From Dehalococcoidia bacterium (GTDB lineage: Bacteria > Chloroflexota > Dehalococcoidia > Lucifugimonadales > VXLM01): 64,000 nt of DNA. Positions 348 through 29,305 of this stretch are shown piece after piece. Each line of letters starts with the position of its first letter. Positions within the stretch are counted from its first letter, which is position 1. The stretch is taken from contig OZ244816.1 of NCBI GenBank assembly GCA_965220255.1, forward strand, positions 1,010,852 through 1,074,851. The letters run 5' to 3'. The notes beneath the pieces were generated by a model. The model was given only the letters and a program-made list of their open reading frames with translations, searched no databases and was not told the DNA's origin. The translations under genes and the position numbers were made by a program.

Positions 348-376
348 TTGACGTGTGGGAACAGACGTTCTATATT
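348..376 (+). promoter_or_regulatory. Putative sigma70-type promoter upstream of portal-like ORF
   Basis: TTGACG (348-353), 17-nt spacer, TATATT (371-376). Lies 42-63 nt upstream of the candidate starts at 418/439. Confidence 0.4.
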
Positions 377-417: not shown

Positions 418-2094
418 ATGGGAGCACGGAGAGGATATATGCCAACGAATATCAACGACCCGGACGAGATCATTCGCGCGGTGGGACGGCAGGAGGAGCA
501 GACGCTTCCGCTGCGGGACCGCATGGAGGGGGACTACCGGCTGTACCGGTTGGAGCCGTTCCAGGAGGTGGACGGGTACGGGCAGCCGGTGGAGGGGTTT
601 CGGAGCTACACGTCGAACGCGCCGCAGGTGTACGCGGACAAGGTGATCCAGTGGATCGCACGGGCGGAGTTCGGCATCCGCATCCCGCAGGCGGGCAGGA
701 CGCGGGCGCAGCGGGCGGCGGACGCGCTGAAGGAGAAGTGGACGTGGGGGCTGATGCGGTCGGTCGACCGTCGCATCCAGCAGCGCATGGAGCCGCCGAT
801 GCGCGACCTGACGGCGTTCCACAACGTCGTGCGGGGGATGGTGGCCGGGCGCTGGCTGATGATGAACACGGCGTCGGGCGAGACGGTGGTGGACATGACG
901 CCGTGGGACCCCATGCACACCTACTGGGCCGTCGGGAGTGAGGGGCTGGAGTGGGCGTGCTACAAGGTCCGCAAGACGCGCGGGGAGATTCGCGCCGAGT
1001 ACGGCGTGGACGTCGGGGAGGACATCGACACGCTCAGGGTGGGAGCGCAGGACGGGGACGAGGCGGAACTCGAGGTGTACGATTTCTATGACCGGACGCA
1101 CAACACGGTGGTCGCGGGTAACAGGGTCGTGCTGAAGAGTCCGACGGCGCACGGGTCCGGACGGGTGCCTGTGGTGATCGTTCCGGTCGGGCCGGTGCCG
1201 CTGGTGCAGACCGACTCGGCGGCGGACTCGGTGTCCGACTACGGCGAGAGCGTGTTCAAGTCGAACCGTGAGATCTACGACAAGCACAACCTGATGATGT
1301 CGATCTTCCTGGAGCTTGCGGCGCGGGCGAGGAGGCCACCGCTGGGGGTGAAATCCCGCGACGGGCGTAAGACGCTGGACGAGGACCCGTACATGGAGGG
1401 GACGACGATCAGCATGAGCGAGGGAGACGACGTGGAGGCGTTCCCGCTGCTGAAGACGACGCAGGACGCGGCGGACCTGACGGGGCGGATATCGGGGGAA
1501 GTGCAGCGCGGGTCGATCCCGCACTCGGTCTACGGGGAGCTCCAGTTCCAGCTATCGGGTTTCGCGATCAACACGCTGCGGTCGGGCCTCGATTCGGTGC
1601 TGAGGCCGCGTCTGATCGCGGAGGCGTCGTTCTACTCGCAGGGGCTGGAACTGCTGACGGAGCAGTACGTTTCGGGGCGGTTCTCGGCGCTGACGGGCTC
1701 GGCAGGCGCGTCCTTCGATGCGGCGATGACGCCGGAGGTCATTTCGCGTGGCGGGACGCCGGAGATCAAGCTGGAGGGCAAGTTGCCGGAGGACGACACG
1801 GCGAAGTACGCGCAGGCAAGGATCGCGCGTGAGGGGACAGTGCCGCTGCTGCCGGACAGGTGGATATACGACAACATCCTCAAGATCCGGGACGCGGACA
1901 ACATCGAGCAGGCGGTGTCGGCGCAGGTGGCGCGACGCGGGACGGCGGAGTCGCTGATGCTGAACTCGATGATCGCGTCGGCCGACCAAGGGGACGACGA
2001 CTACGCGCGGCTGTACGAGAGCGAGTTGCGGCTGGCGAGGATGCGGAAGCTGCTGGAGCTGCAGGGGCTGCGGGAGGAGGAAGCGCGTTCGTGA
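418..2094 (+). CDS. Phage portal-like protein (putative)
   Basis: 558-aa ORF. The likelier start is ATG 439, behind GGAGAGGA at 428-435. Size and position at the head of a same-strand scaffold-like plus HK97-like capsid cluster fit a portal. I could not confirm any diagnostic motif by eye. Confidence 0.5.
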   Translation: MGARRGYMPTNINDPDEIIRAVGRQEEQTLPLRDRMEGDYRLYRLEPFQEVDGYGQPVEGFRSYTSNAPQVYADKVIQWIARAEFGIRIPQAGRTRAQRAADALKEKWTWGLMRSVDRRIQQRMEPPMRDLTAFHNVVRGMVAGRWLMMNTASGETVVDMTPWDPMHTYWAVGSEGLEWACYKVRKTRGEIRAEYGVDVGEDIDTLRVGAQDGDEAELEVYDFYDRTHNTVVAGNRVVLKSPTAHGSGRVPVVIVPVGPVPLVQTDSAADSVSDYGESVFKSNREIYDKHNLMMSIFLELAARARRPPLGVKSRDGRKTLDEDPYMEGTTISMSEGDDVEAFPLLKTTQDAADLTGRISGEVQRGSIPHSVYGELQFQLSGFAINTLRSGLDSVLRPRLIAEASFYSQGLELLTEQYVSGRFSALTGSAGASFDAAMTPEVISRGGTPEIKLEGKLPEDDTAKYAQARIAREGTVPLLPDRWIYDNILKIRDADNIEQAVSAQVARRGTAESLMLNSMIASADQGDDDYARLYESELRLARMRKLLELQGLREEEARS

Positions 2095-3705: not shown

Positions 3706-4833
3706 ATGATTAGGTTAAGAGCATTTAAGGGTCGCATAGGTATAACGGACTATTACCTTACCATGGCTACGTTTGGAGAGGTTGCACGTATGGTCAGGTA
3801 CAAGGAGAACGATCGTGATTGGCCTGCGGAATTACGACAGCAACGACCACTCAGCATGACACGCGTAAAGAACTTCATGGTCCCTTATCTGGTGGAGAAT
3901 CCTGACCACTTCTACAGTGCATTGGTCGTGGAGCACCTCCGCCCAGGTGAAACGACACATGATGTCAAATTCATCGAGGATCAAGACGACGAGAACACAG
4001 GATGGGTCGAAATGGAGGGCACTGAGATCCTGGAAACTCTTGATGGACAACACAGGCTAAAGTCGATTGAGTTGGCCGTCGAGGAGTCACCAGAGCTCGC
4101 AAGGGAGACGATAGCCGTGTTGATTGTCCCCCACAAGACTGTTGCGGTCGCCCAGCAGCGATTCTCGGACTTGAACAAGAACGCCAAACCGACTCCGAAA
4201 GCGCTGAATGTAATGTTCGAGCAGCGAGAAGAAGCAGCGTTACTAGCCAAGAACCTGGCCAAAAATTCAAAGATGTTGGATGGCCGAGTCAATTTGGCAA
4301 GCTCAAGTTTGTCAAAGCGGTCTCCCTACATAGTCACGATTTCCAGTCTGTACGAGGCGGTGAAAATAGTAGGGCCAGAATTGCAAGGGGACATCGACGC
4401 AAAGTCCGAGCAGTTGGTAAATTACTGGGACACTGCGTTAGCTGCGATGCCTGACTTCGAACGAATGGTGCAGGGAGAATTAACAGCCGGCGACATTCGA
4501 AGCAAGTACGTGTATGCAAGCGGTCTAGGATTTGAGGCATTAGCAGAAGTCATCCGCACTATACTGGATGACCACCCCGACAAATGGGAAACGGTCCTCA
4601 CAAACGGGCTTCCTCGGATAAATTGGGAACTTGGGAACTTTGAGTGGGAAGGGGTCGCACTGATCGCAGGACGAATCGCGATAGCCAGGGCTCCTCGGCG
4701 ACGGACGGCAACGTTGATTAAATACTTGCTTGGGCTACGGGTTGAAGAGAGCCACCTAGCAGACTTGAAAGAGGCCTACAGCAACTTGGGTCGGAACCTT
4801 CCTAGCCCATTGTTTGTCCCGAAGGCCGCATGA
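3706..4833 (+). CDS. DGQHR-domain protein (DndB-like, ParB/Srx-type fold)
   Basis: Literal DGQHR motif (LDGQHRLKSIELAV) and the downstream QRFSDLNKNAKP motif typical of DndB/DGQHR proteins. AAGGAG lies upstream of the ATG. About 50% GC versus higher-GC flanks. Confidence 0.8.
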   Translation: MIRLRAFKGRIGITDYYLTMATFGEVARMVRYKENDRDWPAELRQQRPLSMTRVKNFMVPYLVENPDHFYSALVVEHLRPGETTHDVKFIEDQDDENTGWVEMEGTEILETLDGQHRLKSIELAVEESPELARETIAVLIVPHKTVAVAQQRFSDLNKNAKPTPKALNVMFEQREEAALLAKNLAKNSKMLDGRVNLASSSLSKRSPYIVTISSLYEAVKIVGPELQGDIDAKSEQLVNYWDTALAAMPDFERMVQGELTAGDIRSKYVYASGLGFEALAEVIRTILDDHPDKWETVLTNGLPRINWELGNFEWEGVALIAGRIAIARAPRRRTATLIKYLLGLRVEESHLADLKEAYSNLGRNLPSPLFVPKAA

Positions 4834-10153: not shown

Positions 10154-12073
10154 ATGGCGAAGATCGTAGTCAATCAACAAGAGGTATCCCTGGACGGAAA
10201 GCGGTACCGGATCGCGCCGAGGCGAGGGGCCAGCGTGCGGTCGTTCATCGCGTCGCGGTATCCGGGCAAGCTGGTGCTGGGCGACGTGGGGTCGGACTCC
10301 GACCCGAGGCGCAGCGTGATCAAGTGGACCGATCAGCGCGGCGGGCTGGGAGTGTATAAGCTCGATGCGCGAGACCCGGAACTCGACAGGTGCACGTATA
10401 CGTCGTGTGACGTCCGGTACAAGGGAGGGATCACCCTGCCACCGCTCTCACGGTACACCACGGGCGCCGAACTGTCGGGGGACATCACGGCCATCGGGGA
10501 ACTGAACGACGCATACGGTGACAGCGAAATCTACGCGGCGTGGGGCGGAGGGACGGACGTCCGCAAGTACGACAGCAGGACCGACTCGTGGGGCGAGTCG
10601 CTGCACACGCTGCCGGGCGCGGCGTCGGACGCGGTCACGATCTCACACCCCGGCACTCGTGGAAGCCACGCGCAGTATCTCGTCTTCGCGCACGGGGACG
10701 ACGGGTTCACGTACACTTCGGACGGGACGGCCTTCAGCACCAACGGGAGGGACGCAAAGTTCCTTGCGTACTGGAACGACCGCCTGTGGGGCATAGACGA
10801 TGGCGGGAGACTGTGGCAGGGGCCTGCGGGGCCGCTGAGAACAAGCAGGAGCTCGTGCGTCGACGACGCGGTGCTTCCGCTGCCGGCGGGATACGTCACG
10901 TCGCTGTTCGTCGGGCCGGACCGTTCGGGCAGGCCGATTCTCTACGCGGGGACGAAGGTAGGGCTGTACGCCCACGACGACGCGAACAACCGGTTCGTGG
11001 AGACTCCGGCCAGGTGGCCGAAGCACGACACCGGCGGGTCGGGCGCAACGGCGTGGAGGGGAGTCGTCTACGCGCCGGTTGCACGGCACGTCTATGCCTA
11101 TTCGCCGGGGCGTCGCACATTCGACATTGCCTTCCCTCGACGGGGTGAGGACGGCCTGTTCACAACGGCAGGCGCCAGGGGCGGCATCACCAAGCTCCTG
11201 CCGACCCATCTCGACCTCGCGGTGGTGATGGACGGCCTGGGCGCGCCGTTCACGCCCGCCGACGTCTTCCTCTGGGACGGCGTCGGCGTGAGTCACGCTC
11301 ACACCGTCCTCTCATGGATGTCGATAACGGCGGCGTACGTCTCCAACGCCTATGGGAAATACCGGCTGTGGTGGGCGACCGACGAGGGGCTGTTCGGAGC
11401 ATCACCGAACATAGGCTATACGGAGCTGCCCGATTCGCTGACAAACTCGCGATTCGGTCCCGCGGTGTCCTACGCCACGGGCTACCCTGACGCGAACAGC
11501 TTCCTCCGCGCGTCGCACGTCTACCCGTGGTTCGACGCGGGACAGCCCGAGGTGACCAAGACGGCGCTGCGGCTGAGGGTGGAGACGCAAGACTGCACGG
11601 CGACCGAGGTGATCGAGGTGTACGCGGCGGTCGACTACGCAGACGCGTCCCTGGCACTGGTCGGCACGATCACATCGGACGGAACGACAACATTCAATTT
11701 GCCGAATGAGACGACACCGAACGGCATCGACTTCAAGGCCATTCAGATCGAATGCCGGTTGAAGAGGGGGACGGACGAGACGAAGACACCCGTGCTCGTT
11801 TCAATGGCGTTGGAGTACCGCAAGAAGATTCCGACCAAGTACGGGTTCACCTTCGACGTTGCGCTGAACCAGGAGCATGGCGGACGCACGCCGAAGGACA
11901 TGCGCTCTGATCTGGCGGAGGCCATCGAGAGCACGAACCTCGTCGAGTTCACGTTCCGGGACGACGCAGGCACGACGCGGACGCACTATGTGGACGTGGT
12001 CAGCGTGTCGGGCGGCGAGGAGACCGGCCTCGACGAGCGGGGCACGAGCAGGGTGACGGTGGAGGAGATTTAG
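10154..12073 (+). CDS. Large phage structural protein candidate (tail tube/nozzle-type), hypothetical
   Basis: 639 aa from ATG 10154; the 9776 extension overlaps the preceding gene. Beta-rich. Its position after portal, scaffold and capsid mirrors the podovirus gp11/gp12 order. No motif verified. Confidence 0.45.
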   Translation: MAKIVVNQQEVSLDGKRYRIAPRRGASVRSFIASRYPGKLVLGDVGSDSDPRRSVIKWTDQRGGLGVYKLDARDPELDRCTYTSCDVRYKGGITLPPLSRYTTGAELSGDITAIGELNDAYGDSEIYAAWGGGTDVRKYDSRTDSWGESLHTLPGAASDAVTISHPGTRGSHAQYLVFAHGDDGFTYTSDGTAFSTNGRDAKFLAYWNDRLWGIDDGGRLWQGPAGPLRTSRSSCVDDAVLPLPAGYVTSLFVGPDRSGRPILYAGTKVGLYAHDDANNRFVETPARWPKHDTGGSGATAWRGVVYAPVARHVYAYSPGRRTFDIAFPRRGEDGLFTTAGARGGITKLLPTHLDLAVVMDGLGAPFTPADVFLWDGVGVSHAHTVLSWMSITAAYVSNAYGKYRLWWATDEGLFGASPNIGYTELPDSLTNSRFGPAVSYATGYPDANSFLRASHVYPWFDAGQPEVTKTALRLRVETQDCTATEVIEVYAAVDYADASLALVGTITSDGTTTFNLPNETTPNGIDFKAIQIECRLKRGTDETKTPVLVSMALEYRKKIPTKYGFTFDVALNQEHGGRTPKDMRSDLAEAIESTNLVEFTFRDDAGTTRTHYVDVVSVSGGEETGLDERGTSRVTVEEI

Positions 12074-12075
12074 CC

Positions 12076-12360
12076 ATGAGACTGATACACGGACAGGAAT
12101 CGGTGACGGCGGGCACGCCCGCCCAGCTTACGAGCGAGCCGCTGAGGGCGGTGAAGCTCTGGATAAGGTACGCGGACGGGGCCGAAGGCGTCGCACGCCT
12201 TTCGGGAGCGACGGACAGCGAGGCGGGCGTCGAGATCGGTGAACAACTCGCGGAATTCGACTTCACGGCGGCAGGCAGGGGCAGCGTAGACGCCTCCGGG
12301 CTGTACGTGGACGTCTCGACCGGCACGCAGACCGTCACCTGGACGCTGATGGTGGCCTGA
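12076..12360 (+). CDS. Hypothetical 94-aa protein (phage-module ORF)
   Basis: Starts 3 nt after the previous stop. Tight packing typical of phage modules. Confidence 0.4.
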   Translation: MRLIHGQESVTAGTPAQLTSEPLRAVKLWIRYADGAEGVARLSGATDSEAGVEIGEQLAEFDFTAAGRGSVDASGLYVDVSTGTQTVTWTLMVA

Positions 12361-15480: not shown

Positions 15481-15585
15481 GGGGTGGACCAACCATCTCT
15501 GGCTTTGTTCACCCCGAATGCAGGCCGCCCCAGCTATTCTAAAACCCGCCGCTGGGTTCTTGGGAAATTTAGATTTGAGGTGACG

Positions 15586-15999
15586 TCATGGGCGCGGGGC
15601 ACGTATTAGGTGCAAACCGGGGATGTCGTCAAAGTCGCCGTCGTCTGAGGCGACAGGACAGGAAAGGCGTATTGCGGTGGCCGCGATCCAGGCATCGGCT
15701 GTGCTTAGCTTACGCCCAGCCCTCTCTCGTTCGACACGCAAATTCGCAGAAATGTCCGTCGTTTCTTGGTCAGGCCAGACCACCTCGTATTGGTCTAAAT
15801 GGAGCTCAAGTCTGTTTTTCTGACGCGCGCCCCATCTAGCTTTGTACGCTCCGTACCACACTTCTTCAATCGACTGAAAAGAAACCACCGCGCGCTGACC
15901 AGTCATATGGGGTAGATAGAAGTCGCCTCGCTCATGTCCCTTGAACAGAAGCGAAACAACGCTCGTATCCAAGACAATCACTCTGAATGCTTCCGCCAC
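15586..15999 (-). CDS. vapC: PIN-domain toxin (VapC-like)
   Basis: GTG start. VIVLDTSVV near the N-terminus, later acidic residues (SIEEV.., STADAWIAATA, VASDDGDFD), 137 aa. Classic PIN layout. Confidence 0.8.
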   Translation of the reverse strand: MAEAFRVIVLDTSVVSLLFKGHERGDFYLPHMTGQRAVVSFQSIEEVWYGAYKARWGARQKNRLELHLDQYEVVWPDQETTDISANLRVERERAGRKLSTADAWIAATAIRLSCPVASDDGDFDDIPGLHLIRAPRP

Positions 16000-16838
16000 A
16001 CGTCACGCCCTTCACGGATGCCACGGATGAACTCGTCCACGTCGAAGGGTTCACTGGTTGTAATCACTTTTTCGGGATCGAAGATTTTTGGTTTCGGGTT
16101 TTTCAAGAACGCCTCGACATCAAAAGGATCACTCCACGAACGAGCGAGGTTGAGCTCTTGCACTTCAACTGTTGTCCACCTGTTATTGTCATTGAACCTT
16201 CCCCTCCCTCTCACTTCCACACGCTGTGTGGCAAACCGGAGCATGTCTTCATGGAATTCCTCTGCAAACCTCAGTTGCACGTATTCACCTGAGTAGTCGT
16301 GTAGCTGGGCTGTCCGCTTGTCCCAATTGACCTCGTACAACCATCCATGAAGTAGGGTTTCAGTTACGCCGCTTGTCTTGCGGGCAGCAGTGGGCCTGCG
16401 TGAGATTTCCACCCTGTGGGGGTTGTCCCTGCTACCGAACGAAAGTCGCACACCGTCCGAAAGCTTCGCCGCTGTCGAATGTAGCGTGTCTCCTACGTCT
16501 TTTGGCAGAGTGGAATCTTGCGTGCCATCCCACTCTTTCAAGGCTTCTATTGCCCGATTGCCGAGACCCTCCAAATATGACTGACCATCCGAAGGAGCTT
16601 CTACCTCTAGGTCAGCGATGAAGGAGCCGGACCGTATATCGACTAGACGCAAGGTGCTCTGGTCCCGTATCCACTTTGGGGGTCGGCCAAGACCTTTCTC
16701 ACGGTCTCCCAAGTGCTGCACCATGAGTCGGACGGCATCTTGGATGCCCGTGAGGGCAGTGACGATCTCAGGCACCAAGCCACCGGGCCGGGAATCATCA
16801 GAATCTGATAGAGCAAATGTAAGTCTTTGCGCCGCCAT
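15978..16838 (-). CDS. 286-aa protein in antitoxin position, unknown domains
   Basis: Stop overlaps the PIN start by 22 nt. GGGAGG SD upstream of its ATG. I recognise no HTH, RHH, AbrB or Phd motif. Low-GC patch. Confidence 0.6.
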   Translation of the reverse strand: MAAQRLTFALSDSDDSRPGGLVPEIVTALTGIQDAVRLMVQHLGDREKGLGRPPKWIRDQSTLRLVDIRSGSFIADLEVEAPSDGQSYLEGLGNRAIEALKEWDGTQDSTLPKDVGDTLHSTAAKLSDGVRLSFGSRDNPHRVEISRRPTAARKTSGVTETLLHGWLYEVNWDKRTAQLHDYSGEYVQLRFAEEFHEDMLRFATQRVEVRGRGRFNDNNRWTTVEVQELNLARSWSDPFDVEAFLKNPKPKIFDPEKVITTSEPFDVDEFIRGIREGRDVWRKHSE

Positions 16839-17132
16839 GACCCCCCTCCCGACGCTAGTGCGCTGCCATGGTATTGCGGGGAATATAGTATAGCACCCAC
16901 CTCACATGTCCGCTTTAGGAACCGACCCAATGGGGATAAGCCAGTGTGGCACTCTTATAGCATCTTCGCCTATCGAACGTCTAAGCTTAGAACCCAATCC
17001 CGCGCTGTAGCATGTCCTGACACCTGCCTCTCGACCCTCCAGCTCTCCCTCCCGGTTCACACCATTGACGCCCTCTTAACCCACTCCCGGAATACTGAAA
17101 AGAATTTCCCGAAAAAAACGTCCGAAAAAACC

Positions 17133-21837: not shown

Positions 21838-21860
21838 GCGGGCGGCGCTATAGCGTCGGC

Positions 21861-23273
21861 TCAGCGCTTCAATATTCCACGTGCTTGAAGCTGCGTCTTC
21901 AAGTACCCCATATCGCGACTCCCTTTAATCGCGTTGCAGGCGTGGCACAGCAGTTGAAGATTGCCAATGGCGTCTAGGCCGCCTTTAGAGCGCGGAGTAA
22001 TGTGATCTATGGTCAAAACATGGAGGGGTAGCTCATACTCACATCCAACGCACTTCCGTTCTTGACAGGCATACAGAAGTTCCTTATCCGACTGCGGATC
22101 CATAGAACCACGAAGCGCCGGATCGTCGGTGCGCGGGGGCGGTTTGCGAAGTATGCGGGGAGTCCAGTCTTCCCATCCATTGCCGTCATCGTCATTGAAA
22201 GGTATTTGTAACTCGCGTCTTGCCCTGTCGGCCAGAACTTGGGCGGCCTGCGGCACGATGTCGATGCCGATCCACTCGCGCCCAAGTTTCTCGGCGGCAA
22301 TGCACGCGGTTGCGCAGCCGCAGAATGGGTCGAGTACAAGGTCTCCCCTATTCGAGGACGCGCTAATTATGCGCTCCAAGAGCGCAACGGGCTTTTGAGT
22401 TCGCCAGCCGGTACGCTCACGCGCCTGTGAATTGATGACATCTATATCAGTCCAAGAAGATTGAACCGGCCTGCCCTTCATCTCATCCAAGTACCGCTTG
22501 CGCCTGATGCCTCCCCTGCTGGTGAAGTGCAATTTCCCCTCCGCGTCCAACTGCTCCATCGTTTCAAGGGGGACACGCCACAGGGACTTCACTCCCTTGT
22601 ATTCGTACTCATATCCTCCGCCTGCCAAACCCTTCGCCGTAATATCGTAGTCGGCCCAAGCCCGTCCGTCGGGGTCTTTATAGCGGAACCTCGCTCTGTA
22701 CGTCTCCTCATACGGGTTGTACTGAGTATTCCAGGTCCAGCGATTGCCTCTTGTGTAGAAGAGTATTGTGTCCGTATTTGCGCCGAACCGTTTTGAGTCG
22801 CTGTGAGCGGTGGTGCGTTGCCAAGTGATCTCATTCTGAAAACTGCTTCCCCCGAACAGAGCATCCATAATTCCCTTCAAGTAATGGGACGCTGCGGGAT
22901 CGCAGTGCAAATAGATGCTTCCGGTCGGCTTCAATACGCGGTGCAGTTCCAGCAGACGCACGCTCATGAACGTAAGGTAGCCGGCCATACTCTCGCCGTT
23001 TGACAGCTTTGCCCCGTTGATTAGGTGAAACAGCGCCGGGCGACGGTACTCGATCTCGTCGATCCACTCCTGCTTCATGTCGTCCAGAGTCCACACGTCG
23101 TCGAACTCCGCTCCCCTTGCCTCGCTGTCCAGTGGCGCGGCATAGGTCTTGTCCGACTTAAAGGGTGGGTCGAGATAGATGAGGTCCACACACTCGGAGT
23201 TTATCCCGCGCAGGATATCGAGATTGTCGCCCGTGAAGATCGTGCGGGAAGGTACGTTGCAGACGTTGGGCAT
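21861..23273 (-). CDS. DNA methyltransferase (beta-class N4/N6, DPPF) fused to C-terminal HNH nuclease domain
   Basis: Motif IV LIYLDPPF near the N-terminus. SAM-binding motif region VLDPFCGCATACIAAEKLGREWIGIDI near residue 310. C-terminal CVGC..DHITPRSKGGLDAIGNLQLLCHACNAIKG is a canonical HNH. Confidence 0.85.
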   Translation of the reverse strand: MPNVCNVPSRTIFTGDNLDILRGINSECVDLIYLDPPFKSDKTYAAPLDSEARGAEFDDVWTLDDMKQEWIDEIEYRRPALFHLINGAKLSNGESMAGYLTFMSVRLLELHRVLKPTGSIYLHCDPAASHYLKGIMDALFGGSSFQNEITWQRTTAHSDSKRFGANTDTILFYTRGNRWTWNTQYNPYEETYRARFRYKDPDGRAWADYDITAKGLAGGGYEYEYKGVKSLWRVPLETMEQLDAEGKLHFTSRGGIRRKRYLDEMKGRPVQSSWTDIDVINSQARERTGWRTQKPVALLERIISASSNRGDLVLDPFCGCATACIAAEKLGREWIGIDIVPQAAQVLADRARRELQIPFNDDDGNGWEDWTPRILRKPPPRTDDPALRGSMDPQSDKELLYACQERKCVGCEYELPLHVLTIDHITPRSKGGLDAIGNLQLLCHACNAIKGSRDMGYLKTQLQARGILKR

Positions 23274-23449
23274 GAAATGGACTCTTCAGTTACTCGCGTC
23301 AAGGCAGCGGCGCTAGTGCGTTACTGCCATCTTAACTCGTGCCACATGATAGAACGGTTGTTCACGCAGGTCAAGTGTCGTCGCTCCTGCTGGGCAAATG
23401 AAAGTCTTGGGTATGGATTCTATTTATGGATGGAAAAAGACCCTTCACC

Positions 23450-24232
23450 CTACCTGTACAGCTGCGTTGCGGTCGTTACGTTTCCGATGTGCCAGAGCAC
23501 AGAGGGCGGCAGGAGTAGGAGCAGGGCGACTACGACCGCCGAGAGCACTGTCGCGAGCACAGGCGGGCCGTACCTGGCGGCCTGGTCGTTGGAGAGCGCG
23601 GCGAGTCGGTCGATGGCCCATCCGCCAGCTGCGAACAGCAGTCCCGCGGAAACTGCCGTGTACATGAAGCGTCCGCCCTCCGAGACCATGCGGAACGGGA
23701 CGCCGAATATCGTGTCGAGGGAGAATCCCACGAAATCGACGAACGGTATCGCGCCCTCGACGTATGCCAGGACGACGTTCGCCTGAGGCAGCGCTACTCC
23801 CCCGAGGAGCAGCGAGAAGACGACCCAGTATGTCGCGCCGATGGCGGCCCAAGGGAGGATGCCCAAGGCGTGGCGTGGAGTCGATGTCTCGAAGGCTCGG
23901 GTAGACCTGTTGATGAGGTATCCAATGACTCCAGCGACCACCAGTCCCGTCAGGCCGCCGACCAGCATGAAGTACACGATGTCGTCGGGCGGCAGGGCGT
24001 CCGCATCGACGGCGAACTTCGAGGTCAGCCCGACGACGTTCGAGATGACGACGGCCGCGCCGAGGGCCGCGCCGTAGAGCCCGAGGCTGGCGGCGAAACG
24101 CCAACGGGGGCGCGAGTCCTCTCGCGGGTCAGCAAGAACGCGTCTGGATGTGTCGGCGGTGGTCGTCACGTGTGTCGTTCGGCGGGACTGCGAGATACTT
24201 CCAGTGTACATCAACGGCCCTTGCCGGAGCAC
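23450..24232 (-). CDS. Multi-pass membrane protein, hypothetical
   Basis: 260 aa with about 6 hydrophobic helices. Its start lies 1 nt after the stop of the upstream radical-SAM gene. Confidence 0.6.
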   Translation of the reverse strand: MLRQGPLMYTGSISQSRRTTHVTTTADTSRRVLADPREDSRPRWRFAASLGLYGAALGAAVVISNVVGLTSKFAVDADALPPDDIVYFMLVGGLTGLVVAGVIGYLINRSTRAFETSTPRHALGILPWAAIGATYWVVFSLLLGGVALPQANVVLAYVEGAIPFVDFVGFSLDTIFGVPFRMVSEGGRFMYTAVSAGLLFAAGGWAIDRLAALSNDQAARYGPPVLATVLSAVVVALLLLLPPSVLWHIGNVTTATQLYR

Positions 24233-24233
24233 T

Positions 24234-25577
24234 TTACGCCGCCTGCAGCCCTCGGTATCCGGGGTGTCCGGGTGCGCCGTACAGGGCGCAGCCGCTGCAC
24301 GAGCGGACCTGTCCGCATGGGGCGGCGGTCGCGGCCTCCGGGCGAGGGGCGGAGACCCTAGCGGGGGCCGGCTGACTTGGCCGCTCCTTGAAGAGTTCGA
24401 GCTTGAGTTGCCGGGCCGGAGTCGCGGCGCTGCCGGGGAACGACACGAAAGGCGTCGCCCGCTTGCGTACGACGCCCATGGCCTGGAGGTCTCGCCACGT
24501 GTCGATCTTGTGGCTCTCGCGCTGCTGGATGATCCGCTCCGCCGAGGTCGGTCCGATGCCCGGCACCCGCAACAGGTCGGTCTTGCTCGCGCCGTTGATG
24601 TCGAGCGGGAACCGGTCGACGTTCGACAGCGCGATGACCGTCTTCGGGTCGTCCTCCAGCGAGAGGAATCCCGCCGGATCGTAGGCGTGGCGTATCTCGT
24701 CGTCCTCGTACCGGTAGATGCGCTTGAGCCAGTCGACCTGGTAGAGGCGGTTCGTCCGCCAGATCGGCGTCGGCTCGTGGTCTTCCAACGGCGTGTAGCG
24801 GATCGGCAGGAACGGGTTGTAGTAGACCCGCTTGAAGTTCCACTGGCCGTAGAGCTGCACCATGCGCTGGTAGACGTCCCAGTCGGACTCGTCGGCTGCG
24901 CCGACGACGAGCTGCGTCACCTGCCCGACCGCGCCTCCTGGATTTCGCTGTCGCAGGAGGCCGTCCATCCAGTGCATCTGCGAGAGCATGTCGCGTTCGA
25001 GGTCCTTCATCTTGCTGAGCCGCCTCATGCCCTCGACCGTCGGCGTTTCGAGGTTCACGGACAGACGGGTTCCCAGCCGGTAGGCCTGCTCGACGTACTC
25101 GTACTCCGTGCCCGGCATGACCTTGAGGTGAATGTACCCCTTGAAGTCGTACTTGTTGCGGACGAGATCGACGACCTTGATGAGCTTCTCCGTCGTCTTG
25201 GAGCCGGAACCCGCCACGCCGGAGCTCAGGAACAGCCCCGCGACGGTGTGCCTCTTCTCCATCTCGTGGAACGTGCGCGCAAGCTCATCTACCTTGAACG
25301 AGAACCTCTTGCGGGGCACCCAGTGACTGTTCGGGCAGAAGTGGCAGTCCATCTTGCAGAAGTCGGTGAACATCACGCGGAACAGGTTGATCGTCTTGCC
25401 GTTCGGCATCGACGCCTTATAGACCCCCGGCGCGGGGTTCTTCTCCGCCCGCGAGTAGGGCGCGCGCACAGCGGCGTAGTCATTCCCCTTTCCCGGACGC
25501 GACAGGACATCGTCCGTAGCCATTCCCGCCAGCTTCTCCAGCTTCTGGTACCTATCCGGGTCGCTCTGTATCAGCAC
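24234..25577 (-). CDS. Radical SAM protein with helix-hairpin-helix (DNA modification/repair-type)
   Basis: CxxxCxxC cluster CKMDCHFC. HhH LLRVPGIGPTSAERIIQQRE near the C-terminus. Extra Cys-containing tail (CGQVRSCSGC). The layout resembles the radical-SAM family usually linked to UDG-like genes; this is from memory and unverified. Confidence 0.75.
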   Translation of the reverse strand: MLIQSDPDRYQKLEKLAGMATDDVLSRPGKGNDYAAVRAPYSRAEKNPAPGVYKASMPNGKTINLFRVMFTDFCKMDCHFCPNSHWVPRKRFSFKVDELARTFHEMEKRHTVAGLFLSSGVAGSGSKTTEKLIKVVDLVRNKYDFKGYIHLKVMPGTEYEYVEQAYRLGTRLSVNLETPTVEGMRRLSKMKDLERDMLSQMHWMDGLLRQRNPGGAVGQVTQLVVGAADESDWDVYQRMVQLYGQWNFKRVYYNPFLPIRYTPLEDHEPTPIWRTNRLYQVDWLKRIYRYEDDEIRHAYDPAGFLSLEDDPKTVIALSNVDRFPLDINGASKTDLLRVPGIGPTSAERIIQQRESHKIDTWRDLQAMGVVRKRATPFVSFPGSAATPARQLKLELFKERPSQPAPARVSAPRPEAATAAPCGQVRSCSGCALYGAPGHPGYRGLQAA

Positions 25578-25675
25578 GATGGCCCTCCCTCAATGAGAAC
25601 GTGTGTTCCTATAAGGACACATGTTCTTACATTAAGCGGGCCGTGTCAAGCCCCAAAATGCCGGGGTTAAACAAC

Positions 25676-26802: not shown

Positions 26803-26915
26803 TGGGGCGATCGTACTTGGAATTTGGGCTGCCCGTCTCAGTCGTGACTGCGGCGAGTAGCTCGCCCTGTACCCCGATACTGAGCCGGAGGCTAGAGGGC
26901 AGGGGGAGTGCAAAG

Positions 26916-27041
26916 CCAGGGCAATCGCATTTCACACAGGGCCGGGCGTTGAGGGGCCTCCCAACCCACCCGTCTGGACTCCGGCCTTCGCCGGAGTGAC
27001 GATTGCTGGTGTTCCTATCAACTCTAAATGCGATTGCCCTG
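26916..27041. mobile_element. 126-bp MITE with perfect 16-bp terminal inverted repeats
   Basis: TIRs are cagggcaatcgcattt (26916-26931) and aaatgcgattgccctg (27026-27041). Flanked by the 10-bp direct repeat agtgcaaagc (26906-26915 and 27042-27051). Confidence 0.8.
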
Positions 27042-27270
27042 AGTGCAAAGCGCACAATACTTAACCTGATGCTCAGTTATATAGTAGGCTGGAAATGAGT
27101 AGACCGCTGAAAAAACGACCGCAATTGGCGCGGCGTTATGTTGGCGGTGACCACCGTCGTTGCGGGAGTCCTATGAGTACAAGCCACGGACCACAAACCT
27201 ACGGCGATAGAGTCCGATCCCTGCCAGTCCCATCTCGTACAGGCTTTTAACCTTGAGGAGGCAACAATAG

Positions 27271-28257
27271 ATGGAGAACGCCATTTACACCCCGGAAAGC
27301 TACACGGACCGAATACGCCAGGAGCTCGGAAACTGCCTCATCGAGACGAATATTTCTCAAGGTGAGAAGTTCACAGGCAAAGTGCGGGACCGATTCGATC
27401 TTGGAGATCGCATGGCACTCATCACCACCGACCGGCAGAGTGCCTTCGACCGGGTGCTGGCCGCCGTCCCCTTCAAAGGGCAGGCTCTCAACTTAACGAG
27501 CGCATGGTGGTTTGAACAGACCCGCCACATTGTGCCGAACCAGGTCCTATCCATCCCCGATCCAAACGTCACGATTGCCGAAAAGTGTACCGTCTTCCCG
27601 ATTGAGTTCGTGGTGCGTGGATACATCACCGGAACCACGAGCACCTCCCTCTGGACGGTCTACGACAGTGGCCAACGTCAATACTGTGGCATCGATTTGC
27701 CCGACGGCCTGGTTAAAAACCAGAAGCTCTCGACGAATCTCCTCACACCGACCACCAAGGGGGATTATGACCGTCCGATCAGCCCTGACGAGATCGTGTC
27801 CGAGAACTGGATGACGGCCGATGATTGGGAACAATGCAGCCGCATCGCGCAGGAACTCTTCGCTTTCGGTCAATCCAAGGCGGCAGAGCATGGCCTGATT
27901 CTCGTCGATACCAAATATGAGATGGGCCGTGATGAGAACGGTGAGATCCTTCTGATCGACGAGATCCACACTCCTGATTCCAGTCGCTACTGGATCGCCG
28001 ACACTTATGAACAGCGCATGAGGGATGGACAGGAACCCGACAACGTCGACAAAGAATTCCTCCGGCTCTGGTTCACGGAAAACTGCAATCCCTACGAGGA
28101 TGACGTCCTGCCACCGGCGCCGGATGACCTTGTAGTCGAGCTCTCGAGACGCTACATCTACCTTTACGAGACGATCACCGGTCGCTCTTTCGAGTTTCCG
28201 GAGGCGGACCAACCGATCGAGACGCGTTTGAAAAGCAACCTTGAAGGAATCACATGA
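27271..28257 (+). CDS. purC: Phosphoribosylaminoimidazole-succinocarboxamide (SAICAR) synthase
   Basis: GKVRDRFDL..MALITTDRQSAFD..NQVLS..FVVRGYITG.. are hallmark SAICAR synthase motifs (long form, 328 aa). GAGGAGG SD. Confidence 0.9.
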   Translation: MENAIYTPESYTDRIRQELGNCLIETNISQGEKFTGKVRDRFDLGDRMALITTDRQSAFDRVLAAVPFKGQALNLTSAWWFEQTRHIVPNQVLSIPDPNVTIAEKCTVFPIEFVVRGYITGTTSTSLWTVYDSGQRQYCGIDLPDGLVKNQKLSTNLLTPTTKGDYDRPISPDEIVSENWMTADDWEQCSRIAQELFAFGQSKAAEHGLILVDTKYEMGRDENGEILLIDEIHTPDSSRYWIADTYEQRMRDGQEPDNVDKEFLRLWFTENCNPYEDDVLPPAPDDLVVELSRRYIYLYETITGRSFEFPEADQPIETRLKSNLEGIT

Positions 28258-28618
28258 AGGCATACCGAGGGCAATAGACCCCAGGTGATTCTGTTCCCAC
28301 TTCAATTGACGGAAAGCCCTATCCAATAAGCATGAAGTGTAGGCTGACCAGGCGTAAGCGTTCAGAATCGGTGCGAACCCCTCTCTGAGCACAGCACTGT
28401 CATACCCGCGAAAGCGGGTATCCACAGAGGGGTGGCGGGCGTTCATCTCATCAACTCTCAACAGTCACGACCTGGTGCTAAACTTGACCGAGCCAGCGAA
28501 GGACTTTTAAAGTTCTCGCTTATCATCGCAAACACGGTCAACCCTTCTCCGACGAGTTCGTCGCAGGGGCTCGTCAACTTAGCTTGAGCGTTGAGCCAAG
28601 ATTGAATCGAGCGCAAAA

Positions 28619-29266
28619 GTGAAGAAATACATTCTCTTTGACCATGATGGGGTTTTGGTCGATACCGAATTCTGGTACTACAAAGCCGGAGAGCGCGCCC
28701 TGGCTGACATTGGATTTGCCATGGATAGAGATCAATACCTCCGAGACATGATCCAGGGAATGGCCACCTGGGCCCAAGCCAAAGCGGCCGGTATTGATGA
28801 ACAGACCATCAGCAGGCAGCGTGAGGTCCGTAATGTCTATTACCAGGAATACCTGATGACCGAAGACATCGAGATTGACGGCGTCTTGGAAACGCTGGAT
28901 GTGCTCGCAGGTGAGTACAGGATGGGTATCGTTACTACATCCAAACCGGCTGACTTCGCCCTGATACACGAAAAGCGATCCATCCTGGACTATATGGAAT
29001 TCTATTTGGCTAGGGATGACTACAAGCGAGCTAAACCACATCCTGAACCCTATCTGAAAGGACTCCAACGCTTTGGCGCCACTGCCGCTGAAACGGTCGT
29101 TGTTGAAGACTCGGCGAGAGGGCTGAAGTCGGCAATAGCGGCGGGTATTGACTGCATCGTGGTTGCAAACGAGTTCACTGCATCTCAAGATTTGTCCAAG
29201 GCAACTGCAAAGGTCGCTACGTTTAGGGAGTTGCCTTCTGCTATAAGGGGCCTAACAGGCTCATAG
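28619..29266 (+). CDS. HAD-superfamily hydrolase (phosphatase-type)
   Basis: Motif I ILFDHDGVLVDTE, motif III/IV ..KPHPEPYL.. and VVVEDSARGLKSAIAAG. GTG start. Confidence 0.8.
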   Translation: MKKYILFDHDGVLVDTEFWYYKAGERALADIGFAMDRDQYLRDMIQGMATWAQAKAAGIDEQTISRQREVRNVYYQEYLMTEDIEIDGVLETLDVLAGEYRMGIVTTSKPADFALIHEKRSILDYMEFYLARDDYKRAKPHPEPYLKGLQRFGATAAETVVVEDSARGLKSAIAAGIDCIVVANEFTASQDLSKATAKVATFRELPSAIRGLTGS

Positions 29267-29305
29267 TCAGGACCGCGCGCGTTTCCATAAGGAGCGTGTG
29301 GCAGC

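Follow-up and report, generated by a model that had tools for sequence, protein, structure and literature searches.

A radical-SAM gene and an acquired DNA methyltransferase-HNH gene, each behind a predicted LexA operator, in a Dehalococcoidia bacterium

Background

The question raised by this locus is whether three consecutive minus-strand genes form one functional system or lie side by side for other reasons. The genes are found in a 64,000-nt stretch of contig OZ244816.1 from a Dehalococcoidia bacterium, the whole of which is referred to here as the window. They encode a radical-SAM (rSAM) protein with a helix-hairpin-helix (HhH) region, a membrane protein, and a DNA methyltransferase (MTase) fused to an HNH nuclease domain (MTase-HNH). 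An initial annotation had proposed that the three could be a DNA modification/restriction or damage-response module. As relatives we compared 84 rSAM loci of Dehalococcoidia, taking 10 kb on either side and open reading frames (ORFs) in all six frames; the 80 related genome loci are without exception from Dehalococcoidia/Chloroflexota metagenome-assembled genomes, and loci and proteins of relatives are cited below by our L and P numbers. The comparison suggests that the locus probably consists of two adjacent transcription units of different origins, each preceded by a separate predicted LexA operator (GAAC-N4-GTTC). On the sequence evidence, what links rSAM and MTase-HNH is a shared predicted regulator and not co-inheritance. 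This calls for caution in reading function from adjacency, since it is the shared regulatory box, not gene order, that connects the two genes.

Members of the TIGR03916/COG4277 family, to which the rSAM protein is related, are reportedly encoded in about 20% of bacterial genomes and counted among the SOS genes of several phyla (PMC4951493).

Results and discussion

Gene content of the locus

The three minus-strand ORFs are present as initially annotated, at 24234-25577 (rSAM), 23450-24232 (membrane protein) and 21861-23273 (MTase-HNH), and they are genes and not chance ORFs because each has many homologues. The 447-aa rSAM protein contains the CKMDCHFC motif together with the Pfam domains Radical_SAM and HHH_3, and the 470-aa protein combines PF01555 (E 4e-44) with a following canonical HNH domain (PF01844/PF14279, E about 1e-10). 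Two further details of the annotation were reproduced as well, namely the 176-bp gap between the membrane and MTase-HNH genes (23274-23449) and the lower GC content of the MTase-HNH gene (0.55-0.58 vs 0.65-0.70). The start of the membrane gene had to be revised, as described below.

LexA-type boxes at the rSAM and MTase-HNH genes

Perfect GAAC-N4-GTTC sites occur three times in the window, compared with 1.15 expected, and all three are promoter-proximal, lying before rSAM, before MTase-HNH and before an ORF at 418-2094. The box at rSAM, GAACACACGTTC (25597-25608), is a predicted LexA operator situated 20-31 nt 5' of the GTG start. A second box with one mismatch, GAACATGTGTCC (25615-25626, minus strand), overlaps a putative -10 element and lies 17 nt 3' of a TTGACA (25644-25649), the assignment of these elements to a promoter being our inference from the sequence; this upstream one-mismatch box is present in the rSAM region of every close relative. 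When positions -75 to -21 upstream of rSAM were surveyed in 83 species, a perfect box was found in 31 (0.07 expected) and a box with at most one mismatch in 75 (1.4 expected), with the consensus AGAACATATGTTCT.

In Firmicutes and Actinobacteria, LexA recognises the motif GAAC-N4-GTTC, variants of which are reported for Chloroflexi/Dehalococcoides (PMC4951493). Moreover, LexA controls the COG1573-COG4277/TIGR03915-TIGR03916 operon in Verrucomicrobia and Bacteroidetes (PMC4951493, PMC8565304), so that control by LexA, predicted here and reported there, is a feature that the window gene would share with its better known relatives. Conservation of the box in 75 of the 83 species, agreement with a published class of LexA motifs and the known LexA targets of the family together lead us to predict that rSAM is an SOS gene, and it very probably is one throughout Dehalococcoidia.

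At MTase-HNH, the only sigma-70-like promoter match in the region is TTGACC-17 nt-TATCAT (23346-23374, minus strand), and a perfect box (23352-23363) fills its spacer, the whole reading TTGACC-tgcgt-GAACAACCGTTC-TATCAT. A perfect box inside TTGACx-17-TAxCAT is found in all four loci of the genus that carry the gene (the window, L002, L009 and L014), and boxes with one mismatch abut the -10 of MTase-HNH in L087, L250 and L089, which represent two genomic contexts. The third perfect box of the window (359-370) follows the same design, with TTGACG, 5 nt, the box and TATATT, and lies 48 nt 5' of the ORF at 418-2094 (plus strand). While the positions and conservation of these boxes are observed directly, LexA binding and damage induction are what we infer from them. 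The damage-response part of the initial proposal is therefore strengthened by the perfect LexA-type boxes in the promoter regions of rSAM and MTase-HNH, whereas its other part, a single three-gene module, is not.

Acquisition of the MTase-HNH gene

BLASTN synteny with L001, a relative whose rSAM protein is 91% identical, delimits an indel at 21838-23448 that holds MTase-HNH as a single-gene cassette with its leader and measures 1611 nt here versus 46 nt there. The cassette sits between the convergent membrane and tyrosine-phosphatase genes, and the order in L001 is PhyH, rSAM, membrane protein (239 aa), tyrosine phosphatase, ABC, ABC. Within the genus, the slot is empty in L001, L007, L008 and L012, holds MTase-HNH in the window, L002, L009 and L014 (with two tandem copies in L014), and contains other cargo in L003, L005, L006, L010, L011 and L013. 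A conserved three-gene modification/restriction module is not borne out here, as MTase-HNH is missing from the four otherwise syntenic close relatives with an empty slot. Comparison of the junction sequences revealed no evident target-site duplications or repeats.

Codon usage sets the gene apart as well. The GC content at third codon positions (GC3) of MTase-HNH is 0.66, compared with 0.89 for rSAM, which appears native, 0.81 for the membrane gene, and 0.85 and 0.87 for the flanking genes. Outside the genus, MTase-HNH is solitary amid unrelated housekeeping genes in seven loci from five contexts (L087/L250, L088, L089, L251/L252 and L253), all of them in other Dehalococcoidia and with no rSAM or membrane gene nearby. 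Because of the indel, the GC3 of 0.66, the gene's own promoter and its solitary occurrence elsewhere, we conclude that MTase-HNH was acquired separately; the initial annotation had itself raised this caveat, and the indel, the foreign codon usage and the solitary copies uphold it.

Our favored model starts from the observed gene content and from presence and absence in the relatives. The first unit would be native and vertically inherited, and would consist of an SOS-type rSAM enzyme that is bound to DNA through its ComEA-like HhH region and presumably applies 5'-deoxyadenosyl radical chemistry to a DNA lesion or base. In one sub-clade, a fast-evolving helical membrane protein of 239 aa would have been added directly 3' of rSAM and have stayed attached since, its gene probably being expressed through read-through plus its own promoter-like element. 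The second unit would be a horizontally acquired single-gene cassette for a one-polypeptide enzyme of restriction-modification (R-M) type with a swappable target-recognition domain (TRD). Its basal expression would keep host sites methylated, and DNA damage, including phage or prophage activity, would raise the levels of the MTase-HNH nuclease.

The rSAM protein

The rSAM protein (447 aa, 24234-25577, minus strand) has orthologues in the 84 Dehalococcoidia loci, and its Pfam matches to Radical_SAM (37.5 bits) and HHH_3 (34 bits) are both over the cutoffs. The CX3CX2C radical-SAM cluster motif CKMDCHFC (aa 74-81, 25335-25358, minus strand) is found in all 83 orthologues and is invariant in alignment A1, and the HhH DNA-binding region (HHH_3, E 3e-8) covers aa 325-364 (24486-24605, minus strand). 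The initial description as a TIGR03916-type protein holds loosely, in that the family model matches residues 49-387 with 275.6 bits (E 7.6e-82), but the curated cutoff of 343.5 bits is missed. The N-terminus is divergent, the match at residue 49 beginning at model position 37. P0314 and P0315, the nearest representatives after clustering at 50%, score 313-315 bits and are likewise under the cutoff, and relatives at 37-48% identity score 284-404 bits, on either side of it. The protein shares with the canonical family the CX3CX2C core and the C-terminal HhH, at 34-38% identity over most of the length in the best matches. Judged by its sequence, it is a divergent, locally partner-less branch of TIGR03916/COG4277.

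In canonical TIGR03916/COG4277 operons, the rSAM gene overlaps, adjoins or is fused to a gene for DUF4130, often with a uracil-DNA-glycosylase (UDG)-like domain, whereas here the 10 kb on either side of rSAM held no such partner in any of 84 species. On plasmids, canonical TIGR03916 genes with products 34-38% identical to the window protein directly adjoin a gene of the 'UdgX family' or 'TIGR03915 family', and in the distant relative P0428 (666 aa) rSAM, HhH and DUF4130 form one chain, which confirms the canonical DUF4130 link elsewhere. A complex of DUF4130 and rSAM has been modelled in a recent preprint (10.64898/2026.08.19.745780). A phmmer search (E<=1) with two query proteins, one of the UdgX family from Leisingera and one of TIGR03915 from Bacteroides, gave no TIGR03915/DUF4130 or UdgX homologue among the six-frame ORFs of the window or within 10 kb of rSAM in the 84 loci. 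The suggestion that the membrane protein takes the slot of the UDG-like partner is misleading, since neither gene is found at that position in 70 orthologous loci of other species. Clustering of the 1,523 ORFs of the 84 loci revealed no conserved neighbour either, with no cluster accompanying rSAM in more than 17 loci. One same-strand neighbour cluster, c14, was dropped as it looks like a wrong-frame ORF. Another fusion among the distant relatives, P0342 (rSAM-HhH-ApbE, 550 aa), may reflect either a connection with flavin transferases or an artefact of gene calling.

Unlike the canonical family, the Dehalococcoidia clade has a conserved C-terminal Cys3-His tail. The tail has the pattern C-x5-C-x2-C-x4-G-x-PGHP (aa 421-439, 24261-24317, minus strand) and lies past the end of the TIGR03916 match. 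C421, C427, C430, G437, H438 and P439 are invariant in alignment A1, and the strict motif is present in 70 of 83 orthologues. Among the remaining 13, ten retain PGHP and all three Cys but have the first spacing lengthened, two have one residue substituted and one is truncated by a contig end. Cys-rich tails also occur in P0314 and P0315, which are 53-55% identical to the window protein, and the Cys/His tail is absent from the canonical Leisingera and Bacteroides rSAM proteins. A branch of the family that keeps the predicted SOS switch, has no partner nearby and carries a new Cys-rich tail would offer a simpler, one-protein system for biochemistry.

A PDB sequence search matched the protein to ComEA HhH domains only and returned no solved structure for the rSAM family, and no defence family of PADLOC-DB v2 was matched. 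SplB (COG1533) is comparable as a radical-SAM protein that is thought to act on DNA and is SOS-regulated in several phyla (PMC8565304, PMC3765255). Unlike SplB, however, the window protein gives no match to that sequence family, and the solved folds closest to its low-confidence AlphaFold2 (AF2) model are those of HydE, lipoyl synthase (LipA) and biotin synthase (BioB), with template-modelling scores of about 0.38-0.49, and not that of SPL.

The membrane protein

The membrane gene (23450-24169, minus strand) encodes a lineage-specific multi-pass protein of 239 aa, for which 73 homologue clusters were found, nearly all of the same length. The initial reading, in which the protein has 260 aa and begins 1 nt past the rSAM stop, is an ORF-extension artefact. 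That start was rejected because the 64-nt spacer carries frame-breaking indels in 13 aligned loci, and in the same loci a conserved GTG/ATG aligns with window position 24169, 64 nt past the rSAM stop. No match to the protein was found in Pfam, NCBIfam, PADLOC or PHROG. Its AF2 model is an all-helical bundle with a mean confidence score (pLDDT) of 77.9, for which a Foldseek search of the PDB gave nothing under E 0.066.

Examination of the three-gene arrangement across genomes bore out the rSAM-membrane pair in one sub-clade but not the MTase-HNH part. The membrane gene could nevertheless be an unrelated passenger that is kept by its 64-nt proximity and has no part in rSAM function, an explanation that we do not favor but regard as a serious contender. 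It is found in none of the 70 rSAM loci of other species, and in the neighbour-joining tree of rSAM the loci with the gene group into one clade, within which it was lost once, in L004/L015, where rSAM stays. The gene also evolves faster than its neighbour (48% vs 79% protein identity in L334/L335), and L005 (about 11400-12200) and L016 (1423-2181) tolerate, between rSAM and the membrane gene, a gene for a protein of 252 aa that is hydrophobic in its N-terminal half. Furthermore, the spacer contains a promoter-like element of its own, TG(n)TACACTGGAAG (TGnTACACT; 24203-24210, minus strand), which is shared by the 13 aligned loci while its flanks vary, recurs in the distant L334, and could be an extended -10 promoter or another regulatory element. 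The constancy of the arrangement, on the other hand, speaks against a mere passenger. In 17 of 17 contexts of the sub-clade the gene lies on the same strand immediately 3' of rSAM, among these contexts it never occurs away from rSAM, and in L334/L335 the pair has outlived a complete change of flanking genes. We therefore read the membrane gene, tentatively, as a clade-specific companion of rSAM, and any physical link between the two proteins would be a further supposition.

YneA, SidA and ChiZ/Rv2719c are membrane proteins that are induced in the SOS response and stop cells from dividing. Regulation of the Rv2719c operon by LexA is noted in the literature (PMC4181829). Like these proteins, the 239-aa protein is lineage-restricted and fast-evolving and is encoded 3' of a predicted SOS-box promoter; unlike it, they are much smaller and mostly single-pass, and no similarity in sequence or fold was found. 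The resemblance may serve as a lead only.

The MTase-HNH protein

The protein encoded at 21861-23273 (minus strand, 470 aa) is by its Pfam matches and its adenine MTase relatives in the PDB a beta-class, adenine-type DNA MTase fused to a C-terminal HNH domain. It scores 151.5 bits with PF01555 (threshold 26.7), and 41 and 41.4 bits with PF01844 and PF14279, respectively. Motif IV, DPPF (aa 35-38), precedes motif I, DPFCGCAT (aa 315-322), and both are invariant in alignment A2. In the same alignment the HNH domain appears intact, with its catalytic residues and two CxxC zinc pairs; C408, C411, D423, H424, N438, C443, C446 and N447 are invariant and H444 is nearly so. The nearest solved relatives of the MTase part are the adenine MTases M.MboIIA, CcrM, Mod (Type III) and M.RsrI, with which it shares PF01555 and the order of motif IV before motif I, and from which it differs in the C-terminal HNH domain and the predicted LexA-type promoter box.

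The fusion of PF01555 and HNH is present in at least 119 of the 120 listed clusters (at least 59% identity), at lengths of 455-511 aa. Metagenome and viral scans returned mainly MTase-only relatives at 40-59% identity. The closest of these come from actinophage genomes and IMG/VR contigs, in which a few HNH-fused relatives also occur at about 40% identity. Essentially no full-length match to the fusion was found in 50,697 GenBank phage and 72,556 plasmid records, and our literature search found no description of a beta-class MTase with a C-terminal HNH domain.

The middle of the protein is hypervariable (aa 149-285, 22419-22829, minus strand, alignment A2) and is taken to be the TRD. In P0218, the L009 allele, the N-terminal, C-terminal MTase and HNH segments are 95%, 96% and 94% identical to those of the window, compared with 29% in aa 149-285, and P0313 shows the reverse pattern, with 75% in aa 149-285 and 46-61% elsewhere. 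This observed mosaicism indicates that the family undergoes recognition-domain swapping of the kind seen in R-M systems. If the predicted TRD modules are truly interchangeable, they would constitute a natural specificity-swap set.

In Type IIG/IIC single-polypeptide R-M enzymes, one recognition domain serves both activities. MTase-HNH, known from its sequence, resembles them in having nuclease and MTase in one chain and a modular TRD. It could be an ordinary, constitutive single-chain R-M enzyme of phage defence whose promoter box has no regulatory meaning. We consider this improbable, even though TRD swapping is typical of R-M diversification, the PADLOC matches are confined to the Type II and Type III MTase models (MTase_II and MTase_III), and the family members in L088, L251/L252 and L253 have no box. 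Such an enzyme would not account for a perfect box that is kept exactly in the 17-nt spacer in all four loci of the genus, though protein identity drops to about 70% via TRD replacement. Neither would it explain why near-perfect boxes abut the -10 in three distant loci of two genomic contexts, nor why the same promoter design is seen again at 359-370 when the 64 kb hold only three perfect boxes.

For HNH nucleases under SOS control there are precedents. Colicin HNH DNases are SOS-controlled. The 13E12 repeat family of M. tuberculosis comprises LexA-regulated HNH nuclease genes (PMC4181829). In both, as is predicted for MTase-HNH, an SOS box of the GAAC-N4-GTTC type precedes an HNH gene whose genomic setting is variable or mobile, but their proteins have neither a fused DNA MTase nor a swappable recognition domain.

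Assessment of the model

Several observations weigh against two separate units under LexA control. No terminator was detected between the three genes, and transcripts started at the rSAM promoter could run on into the other two. The window contains no lexA gene. Boxes are lacking at the MTase-HNH genes of L088, L251/L252, L253, L047 and L084 (five contexts, six loci), and consequently any SOS control of this family would be lineage-limited. A DUF4130/UDG partner of rSAM could be encoded elsewhere in the genome, 'partner-less' being a statement about the locus. The AF2 model of the rSAM protein is weak (pLDDT 66.6) with the tail unmodelled, and rSAM orthologues have PF01555-type MTases nearby in four or more separate contexts.

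Some of these points also bear on whether the GAAC-N4-GTTC sites bind LexA at all. They could bind another regulator or be non-functional palindromes, as might be argued from the missing lexA gene, from the shortness of the motif, and from the three or more perfect boxes that arose in 12 of 100 shuffles of the window. We think that this is quite unlikely, given that both position and sequence are conserved 5' of rSAM far beyond expectation (75 of 83 species vs 1.4), that the consensus fits a published LexA motif class (PMC4951493), and that the rSAM family is a known member of the SOS regulon in other phyla (PMC4951493, PMC8565304). As for the proposal that rSAM, membrane protein and MTase-HNH are one functional modification/restriction or damage-response module, the shared strand, the lack of a detected terminator, the LexA-type boxes at two of the three genes and the recurrence of MTases near rSAM (an M+R pair in L028, L036 and L077, an MTase-nuclease fusion in L047, MTase-HNH in L084) can hardly rescue it, since MTase-HNH is missing where syntenic relatives keep the rSAM, membrane and phosphatase genes, has foreign codon usage and its own promoter, and is solitary in unrelated contexts without the other two genes, 70 rSAM loci do without the membrane gene, and the MTases beside other rSAM orthologues come from different families and differ in orientation.

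The model of two units of different origins behind separate predicted LexA operators thus remains our preferred explanation. A more ambitious version would hold that the SOS regulon recruited a mobile, TRD-swapping MTase-HNH as a damage-switched programmable nuclease, and that rSAM was freed of DUF4130/UDG by way of its Cys3-His tail, acting in metal binding, with a membrane partner in one lineage. We offer this combination as a speculation with little likelihood of being right in all its parts. If it were true, the damage-switched MTase-HNH could serve boosted restriction, abortive suicide or homing. An R-M-like enzyme behind a LexA operator would in that case connect DNA-damage signalling with restriction or with cleavage of the cell's own DNA, and this in a phylum for which hardly any genetics exists.

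Other genes of the window and of related loci

Various MTase genes were observed near rSAM in the relatives. In L028 (11488-13154), L036 (5489-7159), L077 (11457-12769) and L042 (11540-12487), a different PF01555 MTase of 315 aa lies on the same strand immediately 3' of rSAM, and in three of these four loci it is followed by an overlapping ORF of 240 aa that may be a restriction enzyme. This MTase (R-M) next to rSAM is an independent insertion. L047 (5163-6713, minus strand) has an MTase with a C-terminal part that, judged by eye, is like an Mrr-type nuclease, L084 (5872-7683, minus strand) has an MTase-HNH of 603 aa, and the two tandem MTase-HNH genes of L014 (12311-15359) differ in their recognition domains. 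Altogether, 10 of 13 MTase genes fall within 3 kb of rSAM, which amounts to only about 4-5 independent events once kin loci are collapsed. With such weak statistics the enrichment, judged not significant, hints at a hot-spot or at chance.

The neighbourhood is variable in other places. A second indel at 26803-29272, with a GC content of about 0.51-0.56 and no counterpart in L001, carries genes for SAICAR synthetase (27271-28257) and a HAD hydrolase (28619-29266). Another variable segment corresponds to 15484-17090 in the window and 16825-19515 in L001. L001 has Phage_P4_cII-like and Beta_protein genes there, and the window has an unrelated ORF of 286 aa instead (15978-16838, GC3 0.57). A gene for a DndB-like protein (3706-4833, plus strand; Pfam E 4e-74, PADLOC DndB, GC3 0.58) may belong to an islet, near the start of the window, that is associated with phosphorothioation or with defence.

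The ORF at 418-2094 (plus strand), which follows the third perfect box, encodes 558 aa with native codon usage (GC3 0.91). It has no match in Pfam, NCBIfam, PADLOC, PHROG or GenBank phages, and at least 224 full-length relatives (44-51% identity) on IMG/VR viral contigs. From these relatives it looks like a viral-type gene under a predicted SOS box. In L254, its homologue follows an ORF of 460 aa with a weak P-loop match, and the 558-aa protein may therefore be portal-like.

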